A DNA stretch of 64,000 nucleotides from Escherichia coli (GTDB taxonomy: Bacteria; Pseudomonadota; Gammaproteobacteria; Enterobacterales; Enterobacteriaceae), in the NCBI RefSeq assembly GCF_003334405.1, contig NZ_QOWM01000004.1; one strand, written 5' to 3'. Position 1 is the stretch's first letter; each line of letters starts with the position of its first letter. Positions 15,366 to 55,992 of the stretch are shown one piece after another. Below the pieces are notes generated by a model, which had not been told where the DNA came from, searched no databases, and saw nothing but the letters and a program-made list of their open reading frames with translations. Both the position numbers and the translations under genes were made by a program.

Positions 15366-15995
15366 ATGAAAAGCCTCTCCTATAAGCGGATCTATAAATC
15401 ACAAGAATACCTGGCAACGTTGGGCACAATTGAATACCGATCATTGTTTGGCAGTTACAGCCTGACCGTTGACGACACGGTGTTTGCGATGGTTTCTGAT
15501 GGTGAGTTGTATCTTCGGGCTTGTGAGCAAAGTGCACAGTACTGTGTAAAACATCCGCCTGTCTGGCTGACATATAAAAAGTGTGGCCGATCCGTTACCC
15601 TCAATTACTATCGGGTTGATGAAAGTCTATGGCGAAATCAACTGAAGCTGGTGCGTCTGTCGAAATATTCTCTCGATGCAGCGCTGAAAGAGAAAAGCAC
15701 GCGCAATACCCGGGAAAGACTGAAAGATTTGCCCAATATGTCTTTTCATCTGGAAGCGATTCTCGGGGAGGTGGGGATTAAGGATGTACGGGCGTTACGT
15801 ATACTTGGGGCAAAAATGTGTTGGTTGCGACTGCGGCAGCAAAACAGTCTGGTGACAGAAAAGATTCTGTTTATGCTTGAAGGTGCCATTATCGGCATTC
15901 ATGAAGCTGCGCTCCCGGTGGCACGCCGCCAGGAGCTTGCAGAATGGGCTGACTCTCTTACGCCGAAACAGGAGTTTCCTGCGGAACTTGAGTAA
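15366..15995 (+). CDS. sxy: Competence regulator Sxy (TfoX)
   Basis: 209-aa ORF MKSLSYKRIYKSQEYLATLG... Confidence 0.92.
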   Translation: MKSLSYKRIYKSQEYLATLGTIEYRSLFGSYSLTVDDTVFAMVSDGELYLRACEQSAQYCVKHPPVWLTYKKCGRSVTLNYYRVDESLWRNQLKLVRLSKYSLDAALKEKSTRNTRERLKDLPNMSFHLEAILGEVGIKDVRALRILGAKMCWLRLRQQNSLVTEKILFMLEGAIIGIHEAALPVARRQELAEWADSLTPKQEFPAELE

Positions 15996-24291: not shown

Positions 24292-24570
24292 ATGTCGAAA
24301 GTCTGCATAATTGCCTGGGTTTACGGGCGAGTTCAGGGCGTAGGATTTCGCTACACCACACAGTACGAAGCGAAAAGACTGGGTTTAACCGGGTACGCCA
24401 AAAATCTTGACGATGGCAGCGTGGAAGTGGTTGCTTGCGGTGAAGAAGGGCAGGTGGAAAAATTAATGCAGTGGTTAAAGAGTGGCGGCCCGCGTTCTGC
24501 GCGTGTAGAACGGGTGCTCAGCGAGCCGCATCATCCCTCGGGGGAATTAACCGATTTTCGTATCCGTTAA
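24292..24570 (+). CDS. yccX: Acylphosphatase YccX
   Basis: ORF 24079..24570 trimmed to [21 protein letters not shown] (92 aa), the acylphosphatase signature. Confidence 0.9.
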
Positions 24571-25852: not shown

Positions 25853-25940
25853 TGGCGGAAGCGCAGAGATTCGAACTCTGGAACCCTTTCGGGTCGCCGG
25901 TTTTCAAGACCGGTGCCTTCAACCGCTCGGCCACACTTCC
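25853..25940 (-). tRNA. serT: tRNA-Ser (anticodon UGA)
   Basis: Reverse complement reads GGAAGTGTGGCCGAGCGGTTGAAGGCACCGGTCTTGAAAACCGG...GCTTCCGCCA with long variable arm and encoded CCA. Confidence 0.95.
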
Positions 25941-46884: not shown

Positions 46885-49629
46885 TCAAATCGCGTTCAGG
46901 TCTTTCTTATGCAACCATGCTTCCAGAGCGGCAACACTGCGTGTAATTTCTTCGTGTGGAAGGGGGGCAGATAATGGCTGCTGCTCCAGTTGTGCGCATA
47001 GCTGGCTGGCGATATGCATTCCCAGACTCGAGCAACTGCTTTTTAGCTGATGCGCGGCACGCTTTATTTTCTCGCTATCCTGACTGGCGCGGGCAATGTC
47101 GATTTCATCGAGAAGCGGCAGGGCATGTTGTGTAAATAATACCAGCCATTCGTGGATCTTCTCCGTCCCCATTAACTGAGCATCTTCATTGAGTTGCGAT
47201 ACATCCAGCGATTGATCATTATTGACTTGCAGTTGGAGATAGTGCGCCAGTAACTGACCGAGCACTTCACGCGGCACCGGTTTAGGGATAATCCCGCGGA
47301 ATAATGAACTGGTACGCTGGCGCAGCGTTTCGTCAATGACATGGGCGCTAAAGCCAATCAAAACCAGCGACGGATATTGCTGTGCCAGTTGTCGGGCAAG
47401 CGTAATGCCGTCGATATCCGGCAGATCAAAATCCACCAGTGCGGCAGCAAACGGTTCGCTATTTTGCAGTGTCTCTAAAGCCTGCGCGGCATTGCCAACA
47501 GCAACAATCTGCGCACCACTGGTTTTCAGCATCTCAATGGTAATTCGCTGGGTTAGCGGGTTATCTTCAATTAACAGCAAACGTAAACCGTCAAGACGCA
47601 CCGCCTGATTGACTGTTTTTGGCACGGGTGCCGTGGCAACACGTAACGGCAAGCGTAAACAAAAACAGCTTCCAACCTCCGGCGTGCTGGTGGCGCTCAG
47701 TTCGCCGCCCATCGCCTGGGCCAGACGGCTACTGATAGTCAGTCCCAGCCCGGTGCCGCCGCGTTTGCCGCTTACCTGCACAAATGGCTGGAAGATTTCT
47801 GCCAGTTTCGCGGGATCAATACCGCAGCCGCTGTCTTCCACTTCGACCAGCCATTGCTCGCCATCAGTGCGACTACGCAGGATAATGTACCCTTCGTCAG
47901 TAAAACGCAGGGCGTTGCTCAACAGGTTGGTTATAACCTGACGAATACGTCGTGGATCGCCCATTAACGCGCACGGCATATCATCGGCAATTGCCGTTGC
48001 CAGGCGAATCGGGCGACCTTTCACCCGTCCGCTCATTAATTGCAGGGTACTTTCCAGCAGCGGGCGCGGTTCAAAGGGCTCATCGCTGACCGAAACATTC
48101 TTGCCACCTGCTTCGATAGCGGAATAATCGAGAATATCGTTGAGGATGGTCAGCAACGATTCACCAGAGTCAGTAATTGCCCGCAAATCATCACGCTGGG
48201 CGTTAAGTGCGGGGTTATCTGCCAGCAGTTGAGCAGTGCCGAGAATACCGTACAGCGGTGTGCGGATCTCATGGCTCATCGCCGCCAGAAACGCCGATTT
48301 TGCCTGGCTGGCTTTTTCTGCTTCCGCCCGTGCCTGTCGGTGTTCTATCACCAGTTCCTGCAATTCAGCTGTACGCGCTTTGACCTGCGCCGCCAGCTGT
48401 TCGCGGTGGCGATTCAGTGCATGAACATTGCTGCGAAACGCATCCATCAGCCGCCCGATGGTATCCAGCTCCCGTACGCCAGCGGTTTCCGGGAAAGGGG
48501 AGTCAATATCACCGTCCAGCAGCCGTTGCAGCGCCTGCGTTTGTTCGGCAAGTGGACGCGTGACTGAGCGATAAACCACGCGCCAGAGGATCAGAATCAG
48601 TGCGCAAAGTGAAACCATCCCCAGCAATAACAGGCTGTATTGCCCGCGTGCACTCGCTTTTTCCAGATGCGCCAGTCCGTGCTGATTACGCAGCTCAATG
48701 GTGTCGACCAGCTGACTGACTTCGCTACTAAACTGCGCGAACTGGGCGATGTTATTTTGTGCGAGAGTTTGTAGGTGATTGCTGATTTCACTGTCCTGCT
48801 GATACAGCGCCAGCAAATCGCTATATTGGCTAACGGTAGTTAACGTTGTTGCGACCTGCGCACGAACACCCGGATCTTCAATGCGTATTTGCCGACGTTG
48901 CAGAATTTTCACCGCATTATTGAGCTGCTTTTCCAGCGTTGGTGCATTTTTCTGGATCTGCTCCAGCCCCAGATTCATCACCATTTGCTGCACCCGCAGA
49001 GCGCTAAGGCGCAGTTCATTCATCTGGTTAACATACTCAAGATCGATATCAATCAGCCGATCGAGTGCACTTTCAGCAGCCTGACGCTGATCTTGTTCGA
49101 TCAAATCGTAAATCCCGGCCTGGGTCGCTCCAGCGGAAGTTGTCGCATTATTCGCCTGACCTTGCGCCAGGCGTGCGATCTCATCGGCGGCAGCGACTAT
49201 CTGCTGACTGAGTTGCTGTTGTTGCTGGCGCAGTTGCAAACGCTGCCCCACCAGTTCCCCTTGCTGACGTAACGAACGGGAGATCTCCTGCTCCTGTTGT
49301 TCAATAGCGGTGGTATCAAAACCTTGTTCCCGTAACGCTTGCAGCAACGCATTAATCTTCAGGCTTTGTGCGGTGAGCATTCGCCCCTGCGCCTGCCACA
49401 TCTTTTCGTTATCGGCACTGGTCAGGTTCTGCGCGGCGAAAAGTTCCCAGGCGCTGGCTTCGCTCAACTGGCGCGCCATATTCATGGTAGGAATCAATGC
49501 CTGAGTGTTGTCTTTTTCCACCTGGCTGATAAAGCGCAGGTTGTACCATCCCACCAGGGTACTGGTCAGGGTTAACAGCGCCATCAGGGCAAAGCCCATC
49601 CAGAGTCTTCGGGTCAGGGTTAAATTCAC
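46885..49629 (-). CDS. torS: TMAO sensor hybrid histidine kinase TorS
   Basis: 914-aa ORF; H-box (MSHEIRTPL), receiver and C-terminal Hpt domains. Confidence 0.95.
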
Positions 49630-49711
49630 GGTCGGTGCACTTTAGGTGAAAAAGGTTGAGTCGCAAAGCGGAATGCATCTAGCATAAAGCCTTATTATTG
49701 ATGAGGCTATC

Positions 49712-50740
49712 ATGCGCGTACTGCTATTTTTACTTCTTTCCCTTTTCATGTTGCCGGCATTTTCGGCTGATAACCTGTTGCGCTGGCATGATGCGCAGCA
49801 TTTCACGGTGCAAGCCTCTACGCCGCTTAAAGCCAAACGCGCATGGAAACTGTGCGCGCTTTATCCCAGCCTGAAAGATTCATATTGGTTATCGTTGAAC
49901 TATGGTATGCAGGAGGCTGCTCGCCGCTACGGTGTGGATTTAAAAGTGCTGGAGGCAGGCGGCTACAGCCAGTTGGCTACCCAGCAAGCACAAATCGACC
50001 AGTGTAAACAGTGGGGCGCAGAGGCCATTTTGCTCGGTAGTAGCACGACCTCATTTCCCGACCTGCAAAAGCAGGTAGCAAGTCTGCCGGTGATCGAACT
50101 GGTAAATGCTATTGATGCTCCCCAGGTGAAAAGCCGCGTTGGTGTGCCCTGGTTTCAGATGGGCTATCAACCGGGGCGATATCTGGTGCAATGGGCGCAC
50201 GGTAAACCACTGAATGTGCTGTTGATGCCCGGACCCGATAACGCCGGGGGCAGTAAGGAGATGGTCGAGGGTTTTCGCGCAGCCATTGCCGGAAGCCCGG
50301 TGCGTATTGTTGATATTGCGCTTGGTGATAACGATATTGAAATCCAGCGTAACCTGTTGCAGGAGATGCTGGAACGCCATCCAGAAATCGACGTCGTTGC
50401 CGGAACGGCCATTGCGGCAGAGGCGGCAATGGGGGAAGGGCGTAACCTGAAAACGCCGCTTACCGTGGTGTCGTTTTATCTTTCACATCAGGTGTATCGC
50501 GGGCTGAAGCGGGGAAGAGTGATTATGGCTGCCAGCGATCAAATGGTCTGGCAGGGGGAACTGGCGGTTGAGCAGGCCATCAGGCAATTACAGGGGCAAT
50601 CGGTTTCTGATAATGTCAGCCCACCGATTTTAGTTCTGACGCCGAAAAATGCCGACCGTGAACATATTCGCCGCTCGCTGTCACCAGGGGGATTTCGTCC
50701 GGTCTATTTTTATCAGCACACATCAGCGGCTAAGAAATAA
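49712..50740 (+). CDS. torT: Periplasmic TMAO-binding protein TorT
   Basis: 342-aa ORF with signal peptide. Confidence 0.94.
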   Translation: MRVLLFLLLSLFMLPAFSADNLLRWHDAQHFTVQASTPLKAKRAWKLCALYPSLKDSYWLSLNYGMQEAARRYGVDLKVLEAGGYSQLATQQAQIDQCKQWGAEAILLGSSTTSFPDLQKQVASLPVIELVNAIDAPQVKSRVGVPWFQMGYQPGRYLVQWAHGKPLNVLLMPGPDNAGGSKEMVEGFRAAIAGSPVRIVDIALGDNDIEIQRNLLQEMLERHPEIDVVAGTAIAAEAAMGEGRNLKTPLTVVSFYLSHQVYRGLKRGRVIMAASDQMVWQGELAVEQAIRQLQGQSVSDNVSPPILVLTPKNADREHIRRSLSPGGFRPVYFYQHTSAAKK

Positions 50741-51405
50741 CCTTCACCATGTTGCGTCACCAGTAAATCCGCGCTGAGTTTATGACGTAAACGACGAATT
50801 AACACATCGACGGTGCGCAGGTCAGGGTTTTCCACCCGACGCGCAGAAAGCATACGTAGCAGACGTTCACGGCTGAGAATTTCGCCCGGATTCGTCACAA
50901 ATGCCACCAACATTTCATACTCTGCGCGGGTCAGTTTAATCGGCTCGCCATCCCGCTCCAGCGTATGGCGCGACACATTCAGGCAATAACCGGCAAAGCG
51001 ATAGCAGTTGTCCTGAGTGTGCGGTTGAGCTTGTCGCGCGAGGTCGATTCGCCAGAGCAGATTTTTCACCCGTACTACCAGTTCGCGCAGTTCCAGCGGT
51101 TTGGTGACGTAATCGTCTGCGCCCATTTCCAGCCCAACAATACGGTCAATCCGATCGCTGCGTCCGGTAACCAGAATAATCCCCACCGTTGAGCGTTCTC
51201 GCAGGGCGCGGGTTAACATCAGGCCATTTTCATCGGGTAAGTTGATATCCAGCAGAATTAAATCTACCGACTGATTCTGCATAATTTCCCGTAGCCCGGC
51301 ACCGCTCGCCGTAACGGAAACGGTATACCCCTCCTGAGTGAAGTAGGATTGTAATCGCGCCTGGGTAACCGGCTCATCTTCAACAATAACAATGTGATGT
51401 GGCAT
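50713..51405 (-). CDS. torR: Response regulator TorR (OmpR family)
   Basis: 230-aa ORF MPHHIVIVEDEPVTQARL...; 28-nt convergent overlap with torT. Confidence 0.95.
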   Translation of the reverse strand: MPHHIVIVEDEPVTQARLQSYFTQEGYTVSVTASGAGLREIMQNQSVDLILLDINLPDENGLMLTRALRERSTVGIILVTGRSDRIDRIVGLEMGADDYVTKPLELRELVVRVKNLLWRIDLARQAQPHTQDNCYRFAGYCLNVSRHTLERDGEPIKLTRAEYEMLVAFVTNPGEILSRERLLRMLSARRVENPDLRTVDVLIRRLRHKLSADLLVTQHGEGYFLAADVC

Positions 51406-51423
51406 CAGAGGGTTTTACTCATT

Positions 51424-51486
51424 CTGTTCATATCTGTTCATATTCTGCCGTAAGCCGTTCATCCTGACCAGTGCCGCTGTTCATAT
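51424..51486 (+). promoter_or_regulatory. Tor boxes: four direct decamer repeats (three CTGTTCATAT, one CCGTTCATCC), TorR binding sites of the torCAD promoter
   Basis: Decamers read at 51424-33, 51434-43, 51455-64 and 51477-86. Confidence 0.85.
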
Positions 51487-51534
51487 TTGCTCATTAAGAT
51501 CGCTTCACTAAACCATAATTCTACAGGGGTTATT

Positions 51535-52707
51535 ATGCGGAAACTCTGGAACGCGCTACGCCGACCCAGTGCTCGTTGGTCGGTACTGGCGCTGGTCGCA
51601 ATTGGGATTGTGATTGGCATTGCGCTGATTGTATTGCCACACGTTGGGATCAAAGTCACCAGCACAACCGAATTTTGTGTCAGTTGCCACAGTATGCAAC
51701 CGGTGTATGAAGAATATAAACAGTCGGTGCATTTCCAGAACGCCTCCGGCGTGCGAGCTGAATGCCATGACTGTCATATCCCGCCGGATATTCCAGGCAT
51801 GGTGAAGCGCAAACTGGAAGCGAGCAATGATATCTACCAGACCTTTATTGCTCACTCCATTGATACACCTGAAAAATTCGAAGCCAAACGCGCGGAACTT
51901 GCCGAGCGTGAATGGGCGCGAATGAAAGAAAACAACTCGGCAACCTGCCGCTCCTGCCATAACTACGATGCGATGGATCATGCGAAGCAGCATCCTGAAG
52001 CAGCACGTCAGATGAAGGTGGCAGCGAAAGATAATCAATCCTGCATCGACTGTCATAAAGGTATTGCCCACCAGTTACCGGATATGAGTAGCGGCTTCCG
52101 TAAGCAGTTCGATGAGCTGCGCGCCAGTGCTAATGACAGTGGTGACACGCTGTACTCTATTGATATTAAGCCAATTTATGCGGCGAAAGGCGATAAAGAA
52201 GCCTCTGGTTCTCTGCTGCCTGCTTCGGAAGTGAAAGTCCTTAAACGTGACGGCGACTGGCTGCAAATTGAAATTACCGGCTGGACGGAAAGCGCCGGAC
52301 GTCAGCGTGTACTCACCCAATTCCCAGGTAAACGCATCTTTGTTGCCTCGATTCGTGGTGATGTGCAGCAGCAGGTAAAAACGCTGGAGAAAACCACCGT
52401 TGCCGACACCAATACCGAGTGGAGCAAGTTGCAGGCCACTGCGTGGATGAAGAAAGGCGACATGGTGAACGATATCAAACCGATCTGGGCTTATGCGGAT
52501 TCGTTGTACAACGGCACCTGTAACCAGTGCCACGGCGCACCGGAAATCGCCCACTTTGACGCTAACGGTTGGATCGGCACGCTCAACGGCATGATTGGCT
52601 TTACCAGTCTCGATAAACGTGAAGAACGCACCTTGTTGAAATATCTGCAAATGAATGCGTCTGACACCGCAGGTAAGGCTCACGGCGATAAGAAGGAAGA
52701 AAAATAA
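51535..52707 (+). CDS. torC: Pentahaem c-type cytochrome TorC
   Basis: ORF 51487..52707 trimmed to MRKLWNALRRPSARW (390 aa); five CxxCH motifs. Confidence 0.94.
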   Translation: MRKLWNALRRPSARWSVLALVAIGIVIGIALIVLPHVGIKVTSTTEFCVSCHSMQPVYEEYKQSVHFQNASGVRAECHDCHIPPDIPGMVKRKLEASNDIYQTFIAHSIDTPEKFEAKRAELAEREWARMKENNSATCRSCHNYDAMDHAKQHPEAARQMKVAAKDNQSCIDCHKGIAHQLPDMSSGFRKQFDELRASANDSGDTLYSIDIKPIYAAKGDKEASGSLLPASEVKVLKRDGDWLQIEITGWTESAGRQRVLTQFPGKRIFVASIRGDVQQQVKTLEKTTVADTNTEWSKLQATAWMKKGDMVNDIKPIWAYADSLYNGTCNQCHGAPEIAHFDANGWIGTLNGMIGFTSLDKREERTLLKYLQMNASDTAGKAHGDKKEEK

Positions 52708-55253
52708 TGAACAATAACGATCTCTTTCAGGCATCACGTCGGCGTTTTCTGGCACAACTCGGCGGCTTAACCGTCGCCGGGATGCTGGGGCCGTCATTGT
52801 TAACGCCGCGACGTGCGACTGCGGCGCAAGCGGCGACTGACGCTGTCATCTCGAAAGAGGGCATTCTTACCGGGTCGCACTGGGGGGCTATCCGCGCGAC
52901 GGTGAAGGATGGTCGCTTTGTGGCGGCAAAACCGTTCGAACTGGATAAATATCCGTCGAAAATGATTGCCGGATTGCCGGATCACGTACACAACGCGGCG
53001 CGTATTCGTTATCCGATGGTACGCGTGGACTGGCTGCGTAAGCGCCATCTCAGCGATACCTCCCAGCGCGGTGATAACCGTTTTGTGCGCGTGAGCTGGG
53101 ATGAAGCCCTCGACATGTTCTATGAAGAACTGGAACGCGTGCAGAAAACTCACGGGCCGAGTGCCTTGCTGACCGCCAGTGGTTGGCAATCGACGGGGAT
53201 GTTCCATAACGCTTCGGGGATGCTGGCGAAAGCTATTGCCTTGCATGGTAATAGCGTTGGTACGGGCGGAGATTACTCTACCGGTGCTGCGCAGGTGATC
53301 CTGCCGCGCGTAGTCGGTTCGATGGAAGTGTATGAACAGCAAACCTCCTGGCCGCTGGTATTGCAGAACAGCAAAACCATTGTGCTGTGGGGCTCCGATT
53401 TGCTGAAAAACCAGCAAGCGAACTGGTGGTGCCCGGATCACGATGTTTATGAATATTACGCGCAGCTAAAAGCGAAAGTCGCCGCCGGTGAAATTGAGGT
53501 CATCAGCATCGATCCGGTTGTCACATCCACCCATGAGTATCTGGGGCGCGAGCATGTGAAGCACATTGCGGTTAACCCGCAAACTGACGTGCCGCTGCAA
53601 CTGGCGCTGGCACATACGCTGTACAGTGAAAACCTGTACGACAAAAACTTCCTTGCTAACTACTGTGTGGGTTTTGAGCAGTTCCTGCCGTATCTGCTGG
53701 GTGAGAAAGACGGTCAGCCGAAAGATGCCGCATGGGCTGAAAAACTGACCGGCATTGATGCCGAAACCATTCGTGGGCTGGCGCGGCAGATGGCGGCGAA
53801 CAGAACGCAAATTATTGCTGGCTGGTGCGTGCAGCGTATGCAGCACGGTGAACAGTGGGCGTGGATGATTGTGGTTCTGGCGGCGATGCTGGGGCAAATT
53901 GGCCTGCCAGGTGGTGGTTTTGGTTTTGGCTGGCACTACAACGGCGCAGGCACGCCGGGGCGTAAAGGCGTTATTCTGAGTGGTTTCTCCGGCTCTACGT
54001 CGATTCCGCCTGTTCACGACAACAGTGACTACAAAGGCTACAGCAGCACTATTCCGATTGCCCGTTTTATCGATGCGATCCTCGAACCGGGGAAAGTGAT
54101 CAACTGGAACGGTAAATCGGTAAAACTGCCGCCGCTGAAAATGTGTATTTTTGCCGGAACTAACCCATTCCATCGCCATCAGCAGATCAACCGCATTATT
54201 GAAGGCTTGCGCAAGCTGGAAACGGTTATCGCCATAGATAACCAGTGGACCTCAACCTGCCGCTTTGCCGATATCGTACTGCCTGCGACCACGCAGTTTG
54301 AGCGTAACGATCTCGACCAGTACGGCAATCACTCCAACCGTGGCATTATCGCCATGAAACAGGTGGTGCCGCCGCAGTTCGAGGCGCGCAACGACTTCGA
54401 TATTTTCCGCGAGCTGTGCCGTCGCTTTAATCGCGAAGAAGCCTTTACCGAAGGGCTGGACGAAATGGGCTGGCTGAAACGCATCTGGCAGGAAGGTGTA
54501 CAGCAAGGCAAAGGACGCGGCGTTCATCTGCCAGCGTTTGATGACTTCTGGAATAACAAAGAGTACGTCGAGTTTGACCATCCGCAGATGTTTGTTCGCC
54601 ACCAGGCATTCCGCGAAGATCCGGATCTCGAACCGCTGGGCACGCCGAGTGGCCTGATTGAGATCTACTCGAAAACTATCGCCGATATGAACTACGACGA
54701 TTGTCAGGGGCATCCGATGTGGTTTGAGAAAATCGAACGCTCCCACGGTGGGCCTGGCTCGCAAAAGTATCCGTTGCATCTGCAATCTGTGCATCCGGAT
54801 TTCCGACTTCACTCGCAGTTATGTGAGTCGGAAACGCTGCGTCAGCAATATACGGTAGCGGGTAAAGAGCCAGTATTCATTAACCCGCAGGATGCCAGCG
54901 CGCGCGGTATTCGTAACGGTGATGTGGTACGCGTCTTTAACGCTCGCGGTCAGGTGTTGGCAGGGGCAGTGGTTTCTGACCGCTATGCACCCGGCGTGGC
55001 ACGAATTCACGAAGGGGCATGGTACGATCCAGATAAAGGCGGCGAGCCTGGTGCGCTGTGCAAATACGGTAACCCCAACGTGTTGACCATCGACATCGGT
55101 ACATCGCAGCTGGCGCAGGCGACCAGTGCGCACACTACGCTGGTGGAAATTGAGAAGTACAACGGAACAGTGGAGCAGGTGACGGCGTTTAACGGCCCCG
55201 TGGAGATGGTGGCGCAGTGCGAATATGTTCCCGCGTCGCAGGTGAAATCATGA
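52707..55253 (+). CDS. torA: TMAO reductase TorA (molybdoenzyme)
   Basis: 848-aa ORF with Tat signal [11 protein letters not shown]. Confidence 0.96.
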
Positions 55254-55857: not shown

Positions 55858-55992
55858 GTGCGCCTGAAAAGACGCGTTTAGCGTCGCATCAGGCATTATG
55901 GCGCAGTTGCCGGATGCGGCGTGAACGTCTTATCCGGCCCACAGGAACTGTAATCTTTGTAGACCGGTTAAGATGCGTCATCGCATCCGGCA
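55858..55992. repeat. BIME/REP cluster (three REP-like palindromes)
   Basis: GCCTGAAAAGACGCG...CGCATCAGGC, GCCGGATGCGGCGTGAACGTCTTATCCGGCC and GATGCGTCATCGCATCCGGC. Confidence 0.65.

Follow-up and report, generated by a model that had tools for sequence, protein, structure and literature searches.

The window analysed here, a 64-kb stretch of Escherichia coli DNA, contains the genes torT and torR, which are oriented tail to tail and overlap at their 3' ends. The genes, the parts of the overlap and the regions from which torT and torR are transcribed were located as follows.

49712..50740, plus strand: torT coding sequence, periplasmic TMAO-binding protein of 342 aa (ORF list, translation and RefSeq)
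50713..51405, minus strand: torR coding sequence, OmpR-family response regulator of 230 aa (ORF list, translation and RefSeq)
50713..50740, both strands: shared segment of 28 nt, encoding TorT residues 335-342 plus stop and TorR residues 223-230 plus stop
50738..50740, plus strand: torT stop codon TAA, antisense to the third base of Gly222 and the first two bases of Tyr223 of TorR
50713..50715, minus strand: torR stop codon TGA, antisense to the third base of Tyr334 and the first two bases of Gln335 of TorT
46885..49629, minus strand: torS, on the same strand as torR (ORF list and annotation)
49630..49711: torS-torT divergent promoter region, the source of torT transcription, with a shared IscR site (Carey et al. 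2019)
51406..51534: torR-torC intergenic control region, the source of torR transcription (annotation)

In a sequence-only reading of this DNA, it had been claimed that the 3' ends of torT and torR share 28 nt in convergent orientation. This was confirmed, as the sequence, the ORF list, RefSeq and the MG1655 genome all agreed on the overlap. The names given to the two genes were also correct: the translations matched the RefSeq proteins WP_001264933.1 (TorT) and WP_001120125.1 (TorR), and homology to solved structures was found for both. Residues 46-332 of TorT were homologous to the solved structure 3o1h. Residues 1-121 of TorR matched the solved TorR receiver domain (1zgz), and residues 4-230 aligned with BaeR (4b09) up to the last residue; thus, the part of TorR encoded in the overlap belongs, according to this alignment, to the DNA-binding domain. 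Many RefSeq E. coli chromosomes contained a 1.9-kb query sequence with 100% nucleotide identity, and the relative coordinates of torS, torT and torR in the RefSeq records were identical to the layout in the window. The layout in MG1655 was alike, with torT at 1056261..1057289 and torR at 1057262..1057954. The junction was found in approximately 5,416 of 5,426 complete E. coli genomes.

The possibility that the overlap was an annotation artefact was considered and rejected, since homology backed both reading frames, as far as residue 332 in TorT and up to the final residue in TorR. The choice of start codons was irrelevant to this question because a 3' overlap is set only by the reading frames and the stop codons.

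The torT-torR pair is a member of the class of convergent overlapping coding sequences and shows all the defining features of this class. As in other such pairs, two genuine genes on opposite strands share short 3' ends, and TorT carries a non-domain C-terminal tail that exceeds the usual length in its family; no essential difference from the class was found. The overlap has long been present in every E. coli tor annotation, and it is of a common kind. For E. coli, 75 convergent coding overlaps have been reported (Huvet & Stumpf 2014, PMC4161906). Three further convergent overlaps were verified on the window sequence.

719-722: zapC/ycbX overlap, convergent, 4 nt
15958-15995: sxy/yccS overlap, convergent, 38 nt
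24567-24570: yccX/tusE overlap, convergent, 4 nt

The 28 nt shared by torT and torR are thus more than the two 4-nt overlaps and fewer than the 38 nt shared by sxy and yccS. In a count made from the annotation table for window positions 1-56000, coding overlap occurred at 4 of the 11 convergent junctions, torT/torR included. The zapC/ycbX, sxy/yccS and yccX/tusE pairs are also present in the list of convergent pairs published with ExcludonFinder (PMC12288877). The torT-torR overlap is therefore not unusual for E. coli.

Conservation of the junction and length of the overlap

The junction was compared among relatives by a scan with TorT as the query and one genome per species. The scan yielded 18 further loci, all of them in Enterobacterales, and torR converged on torT in 18 of 18. 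From the exact stop positions, the junctions were as follows.

28-nt overlap, 12 of the 18 loci: Escherichia (four lineages), Citrobacter (four), Providencia (three) and Enterobacter ludwigii
21-nt overlap: Serratia sp. H1w
54-nt overlap: Serratia liquefaciens MAG
4-nt overlap: Edwardsiella hoshinae
7-nt spacer: three other Edwardsiella species

Considering that homology was detected in both frames, that the junction was present in nearly all complete E. coli genomes and that the convergent layout was kept in every relative, it may be concluded that the overlap is real and inherited and does not reflect a chance ORF. The 28-nt overlap spanned genera whose TorT proteins were only 66-76% identical. 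In all 13 loci with this overlap, the torT stop codon was TAA or TAG, and the torR stop codon was invariably TGA. The TorR tail GEGYFLAA[DE]V-x was kept in 19 of 19 loci, and the TorT tail was conserved solely in the loci with the 28-nt overlap.

The reason for this exact length was sought in the codon phase of the two genes. The two reading frames overlap in such a way that the third codon positions of torT and torR fall on the same base pairs. When the 13 loci with the 28-nt overlap were compared, 9 of 10 shared third-position columns were variable versus 4 of the 18 other columns. Because the third positions coincide, most synonymous substitutions in torR leave TorT unchanged as well, and for this reason the overlap costs the two genes little.

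The positions at which torT can end in this phase are restricted by codon complementing. A torT stop codon can lie only opposite TAY (Tyr) when the preceding codon has T or C as its third base, or opposite CAN (His or Gln) when that third base is T. Going inward from the 3' end of torR, the first possible site was at Gly222-Tyr223 of the conserved GxGY motif. A recoding simulation was carried out in which the last 60 codons of TorR were replaced at random by synonymous ones, drawn at the codon frequencies of 24 window genes (20,000 trials). An overlap of exactly 28 nt was obtained in 72.5% of the trials; in the remainder, it was longer or unresolved, and it was never shorter. Selection on the length of the overlap is therefore unnecessary, since conservation of the TorR protein alone was sufficient in the simulation and since the junctions of Serratia and Edwardsiella vary. 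On these two grounds, selection for the exact length was considered and found not to be needed. The conservation of the 28 nt may still be read in selectionist terms, as the recoding shows that selection is unnecessary and nothing more. Caution is thus advisable when the exact length of an overlap is conserved across genera, as such conservation can be passive, arising from shared third positions and from stop sites opposite a conserved motif.

The two protein tails that meet in the overlap are of different kinds. The alignments of TorT to 3o1h_B (Vibrio parahaemolyticus TorT) and to 4yhs_A (a related binding protein) both stopped at residue 332, one short of the chain ends. Because the structural alignments end there, the overlapped residues 335-342 are taken as a short appendage beyond the fold. 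The length of the tail was compared among 86 diverse family representatives with pairwise identity of no more than 50%. In the family, the median number of residues past the position aligned with Tyr332 was 5 (mode 3); in E. coli TorT, it is 10. In prokaryotes, convergent overlaps usually come about when a gene is extended at its 3' end, probably because its stop codon was lost or had moved, and a TorT tail that extends beyond the end of the fold fits this origin.

In all, torT and torR are probably no more than two genuine genes with an ordinary overlap of their tails, which has been inherited and persists as a nearly costless arrangement rather than as a regulatory device. On this account, the conserved fold of TorT ends at about residue 332 (...GGFRPVY), and the last eight codons and the stop codon form a short non-domain tail that covers the end of torR, where the conserved last strand of the winged-helix domain (GEGYFLAADVC) is encoded. 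With Gly222 encoded as GGT or GGC, the overlap is fixed at 28 nt, so that TorR dictates the tail of TorT.

An observation apart from the length of the overlap concerns the origin of the relatives. The Providencia TorT proteins (loci L009, L011 and L012) were 70-72% identical to E. coli TorT, and these loci had the same 28-nt overlap. The Serratia TorT proteins (L017 and L019) were just 60-61% identical to E. coli TorT, and their junctions were different. Judging by these identities, the contrast between Providencia and Serratia may reflect horizontal transfer of the tor regulatory genes.

Termination around the junction

It had also been stated in the sequence-only reading that the face-to-face arrangement leaves no room for terminators. 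This was right insofar as there is zero intergenic space and no junction hairpin on either strand. It did not hold in the wider sense, as termination is possible inside the opposite gene, where a Rho region antisense to torT has been published (Adams et al. 2021). Zero intergenic space should therefore not be equated with the absence of termination, since Rho acts inside the opposite gene.

Signals for termination were looked for around the junction. In a consensus scan, no intrinsic terminator was matched past the stop codon of torT or torR; the sole two hits were inside torT, upstream of its stop codon. The structure at the junction was no more stable than that of shuffled sequences (fold z-scores of -0.29 and 0.01 for 211 nt on each strand), no hairpin was conserved across 15 orthologous junctions, and no Rfam match was present at the torT-torR junction. 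In the published Term-seq data, no curated 3' end was assigned to torT or torR under three conditions (Adams et al. 2021, PMC7815308), probably owing to their low expression.

These results bear on the idea that the junction is a collision-driven bidirectional terminator, in which a pause hairpin and head-on collisions set sharp 3' ends, as at SEnd-seq sites. In E. coli, reports place such terminators between convergent genes in hundreds of cases, and a convergent pair with no spacer would be a natural candidate. The known cases (Ju et al. 2019; bioRxiv 10.1101/2022.10.23.513370) resemble the torT-torR junction in that convergent transcripts end inside or beyond each other. However, the torT-torR junction differs in that it has no pause hairpin, that no sharp 3' ends have been reported for it, including the curated Term-seq set mentioned above, and that its expression is low. 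Moreover, its minus-strand read-through is Rho-dependent, whereas the known sites are Rho-independent and work best in highly expressed pairs. With a hairpin absent both in and around the E. coli overlap and not conserved at the orthologous junctions, the collision-driven terminator was regarded as very improbable; the junction is no bidirectional hairpin terminator, as the stem-loop that defines such terminators was not found.

Published data point instead to Rho. A Rho termination region that is sensitive to bicyclomycin was mapped on the minus strand, antisense to torT, at MG1655 position 1056830, with a score of 4.34 and p = 2.2e-5 (Adams et al. 2021, PMC7815308, supplementary file 2). Two features were placed in the window on this basis and by composition.

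50281, minus strand: peak of the published Rho region, converted from MG1655 1056830, 432 nt past the torR stop codon
50463..50612, minus strand: C-rich, G-poor RNA 101-250 nt past the torR stop codon, a candidate Rho loading region (by composition; its function is putative)

In the minus-strand RNA from +101 to +250 after the torR stop codon, the C/G ratio was 1.9-2.3, with up to 40% C. In the plus-strand RNA, the C/G ratio was 1.9-2.2 from +151 to +225 and from +376 to +450 after the torT stop codon, and no Rho region has been reported there. C-rich stretches are weak evidence for Rho because the antisense strands of genes are often C-rich.

The torT-torR junction is like known cases of Rho-dependent antisense termination in that a bicyclomycin-sensitive region lies approximately 430 nt past the torR stop codon and that C-rich, G-poor RNA lies upstream of this region. 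It differs from them in that the signal was on the minus strand only and the read depth was low: the reads of the bicyclomycin-sensitive minus-strand RNA numbered 39 and 14 in untreated cells versus 52 and 81 in treated cells (Adams et al. 2021, PMC7815308). Antisense positions constitute the largest class of Rho termination regions, 51.5% (Adams et al. 2021, PMC7815308). The read-through seen on the minus strand resembles, in its behaviour, the usual antisense RNA that is suppressed by Rho. The bicyclomycin-sensitive RNA may be either read-through from torR or a spurious antisense transcript from a promoter inside torT.

A weak sigma-70-like match, TCGGCA-17-TAAAAT, was noted at 50655-50627 on the minus strand, just past the torR stop codon and antisense to torT. 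The Rho-sensitive antisense RNA could start there instead. Promoter-like sites were not enriched near the junction, where 3 were found versus 2.4 expected from shuffled sequence.

On the preferred account of an ordinary overlap, each transcript, having no terminator at the junction, would run on as untranslated antisense RNA inside the opposite gene. Rho would stop the run-on RNA, as the published bicyclomycin data show for the minus strand and as is inferred for the plus strand. The torT and torR transcripts would then overlap by hundreds of nucleotides.

A more elaborate reading gives the escaped RNA a function: torR transcripts not stopped by Rho would continue as sense RNA of torS, torT transcripts not stopped by Rho would continue into torCAD, and the locus would amount to a latent "noncontiguous operon", with Rho activity governing how strongly its genes are coupled. 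The strands do alternate in the order torS (-), torT (+), torR (-) and torCAD (+) over window positions 46885-55253, and as in a noncontiguous operon, two co-directional genes, torR and torS, flank a gene of the opposite strand, torT. Neither path contained an intrinsic terminator in the consensus scan. In addition, bicyclomycin raised the minus-strand reads in an 800-nt interval that reaches the 5' end of torS, but this downstream interval includes torS's own transcripts, so the signal is ambiguous. The locus differs from a noncontiguous operon in that Rho normally ends the minus-strand RNA within torT; read-through is halted in untreated cells, and the read counts are very low. Only three noncontiguous operons of E. 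coli are listed by ExcludonFinder, and the tor locus is absent from this list (PMC12288877). The regulation of torS is explained by its own IscR-controlled promoters (Carey et al. 2019). A Rho-gated operon of this kind is therefore hardly to be expected, and a functional role for read-through across the alternating strands of the tor locus has only a very slight chance of being real.

Expression of torT and torR and the proposed coupling

In the sequence-only reading, it was proposed that the layout could couple the expression of torT and torR antagonistically. In its strongest form, this proposal would make the pair a functional excludon, in which torT and torR antagonise each other through polymerase collisions, RNase III cleavage of the paired 3' regions, or both, and in which the TorT:TorR ratio would be tuned, for example, when IscR repression is lifted anaerobically. 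The pair is like an excludon in that it is convergent with necessarily overlapping transcripts: because the two coding sequences overlap, the transcripts overlap unavoidably if each gene is transcribed to its stop codon. It is also in a published list, as ExcludonFinder (NAR 2025, PMC12288877) counts torT-torR as one of 165 convergent excludons in MG1655, detected in 50% or more of the 58 transcriptomes. Excludon pairs, this pair included, were more syntenic than controls (PMC12288877). Two further points in favour are that the convergent layout was kept in all 18 related loci and that minus-strand RNA reaches hundreds of nucleotides into antisense torT. However, the listing says little about regulation, because it is based on RNA-seq coverage and any expressed pair with overlapping coding sequences qualifies. 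In the literature, a TMAO time course included, neither reciprocal-expression data nor a pair-specific test was found for torT-torR.

The expression levels of the genes are informative in this respect. Under aerobic conditions, IscR represses torS and torT, so that their transcription is at an "extremely low level" (PMC6814406). During microaerobic growth, torT is upregulated approximately 3-fold. [quoted passage not shown] The stronger the opposing promoter, the greater the repression by convergent transcription, and it is weak promoters that suffer most from it (PMC4731013). The latter point favours the excludon, as interference hits weak promoters hardest; the former counts against it, as known interference needs appreciable transcription from a reasonably strong opposing promoter, whereas the torT and torR promoters are very weak and the pair was catalogued from coverage alone. 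Approximately 85% of head-on collisions are survived by polymerases on translated mRNA (PMC4731013), and collision-driven termination is least efficient in lowly expressed pairs (bioRxiv 10.1101/2022.10.23.513370).

The frequency of encounters was estimated by assuming approximately 1.8 kb between the promoter regions, elongation at approximately 45 nt/s and one initiation per 10-30 minutes. The chance of an encounter should then be 4-13% per transcript and the loss a few per cent at most, which is a rough, order-of-magnitude figure derived from assumed initiation rates. As polymerases that read through are removed by Rho, the actual loss should be even smaller. Collisions between polymerases should be infrequent because torT, torS and torR are all very weakly expressed. 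On the preferred account of a nearly costless overlap, head-on collisions and antisense pairing would therefore shift expression by a few per cent at most, again to an order of magnitude, the effect being this small because all three genes are transcribed very weakly.

Evidence on the Tor system in other arrangements was also considered. A refactored Tor system, in which torT, torS and torR were expressed from separate inducible promoters with no overlap, signals normally. Among the relatives, the junctions ranged from a 54-nt overlap to a 7-nt spacer, and in Vibrio the genes are apart: in Vibrio fluvialis, torS-torT and torR-torD are at separate loci (PMC10662104). Because torT and torR are at separate loci in this species, Tor signalling does not require their adjacency. 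The conservation of the 28 nt, which might otherwise have argued for a regulatory function, is covered by the passive account given above. Considering all of this evidence, a functional excludon was judged unlikely, and the antagonistic coupling proposed for torT and torR is probably weak.

The effect on torT deserves separate mention. TorS and TorT are scarce, and their ratio controls the bet-hedging phenotype (PMC6814406); given this scarcity, even a small effect on torT could matter. A broader functional reading can be built on this, in which the overlap is kept for its Rho-limited convergent read-through. The read-through would provide either a negative, IscR- and oxygen-dependent coupling between torT and torR or a feed from torR into torS and from torT into torCAD, and it would thereby shape the TorS:TorT:TorR ratios and the noisy, bet-hedging induction of TMAO respiration. 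This broader reading was considered distinctly unlikely. A real and large coupling would mean that this low-copy, bet-hedging signalling system is also controlled in cis, and it would be of interest to specialists in two-component signalling. As it stands, the torT-torR overlap matters little, and ExcludonFinder already includes the pair among its convergent excludons. In published work with torT-lacZ fusions, the fusion strains were also deleted for torR (Carey et al. 2019), so the overlap has already been worked around.

Neighbouring features

Three tor boxes, to which TorR binds, were located in the torR-torC intergenic region by a pattern search for CTGTTCATAT, and they were the only exact matches in the window.

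51424-51433: tor box
51434-51443: tor box
51477-51486: tor box

The torS-torT intergenic region (49630-49711) is 82 nt long, and no prophage is integrated there in this strain. The attachment site of phage HK022 lies in this region.

The annotated start codon of torS is a GTG at 49627-49629 on the minus strand, giving a protein of 914 aa. It has been demonstrated that only a downstream ATG supports the translation of torS (Carey et al. 2019, eLife). The torS start given in RefSeq and in the ORF list is thus probably too far upstream.

Elsewhere in the window, four RNA features scored above the Rfam gathering score.

44756-45178, plus strand: cspA-type thermoregulator leader, upstream of cspG
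55861-55939, minus strand: naRNA4 (REP-derived RNA), between torD and cbpM
61826-61868, minus strand: ES036 sRNA
25856-25940, minus strand: tRNA, annotated as tRNA-Ser at 25853-25940
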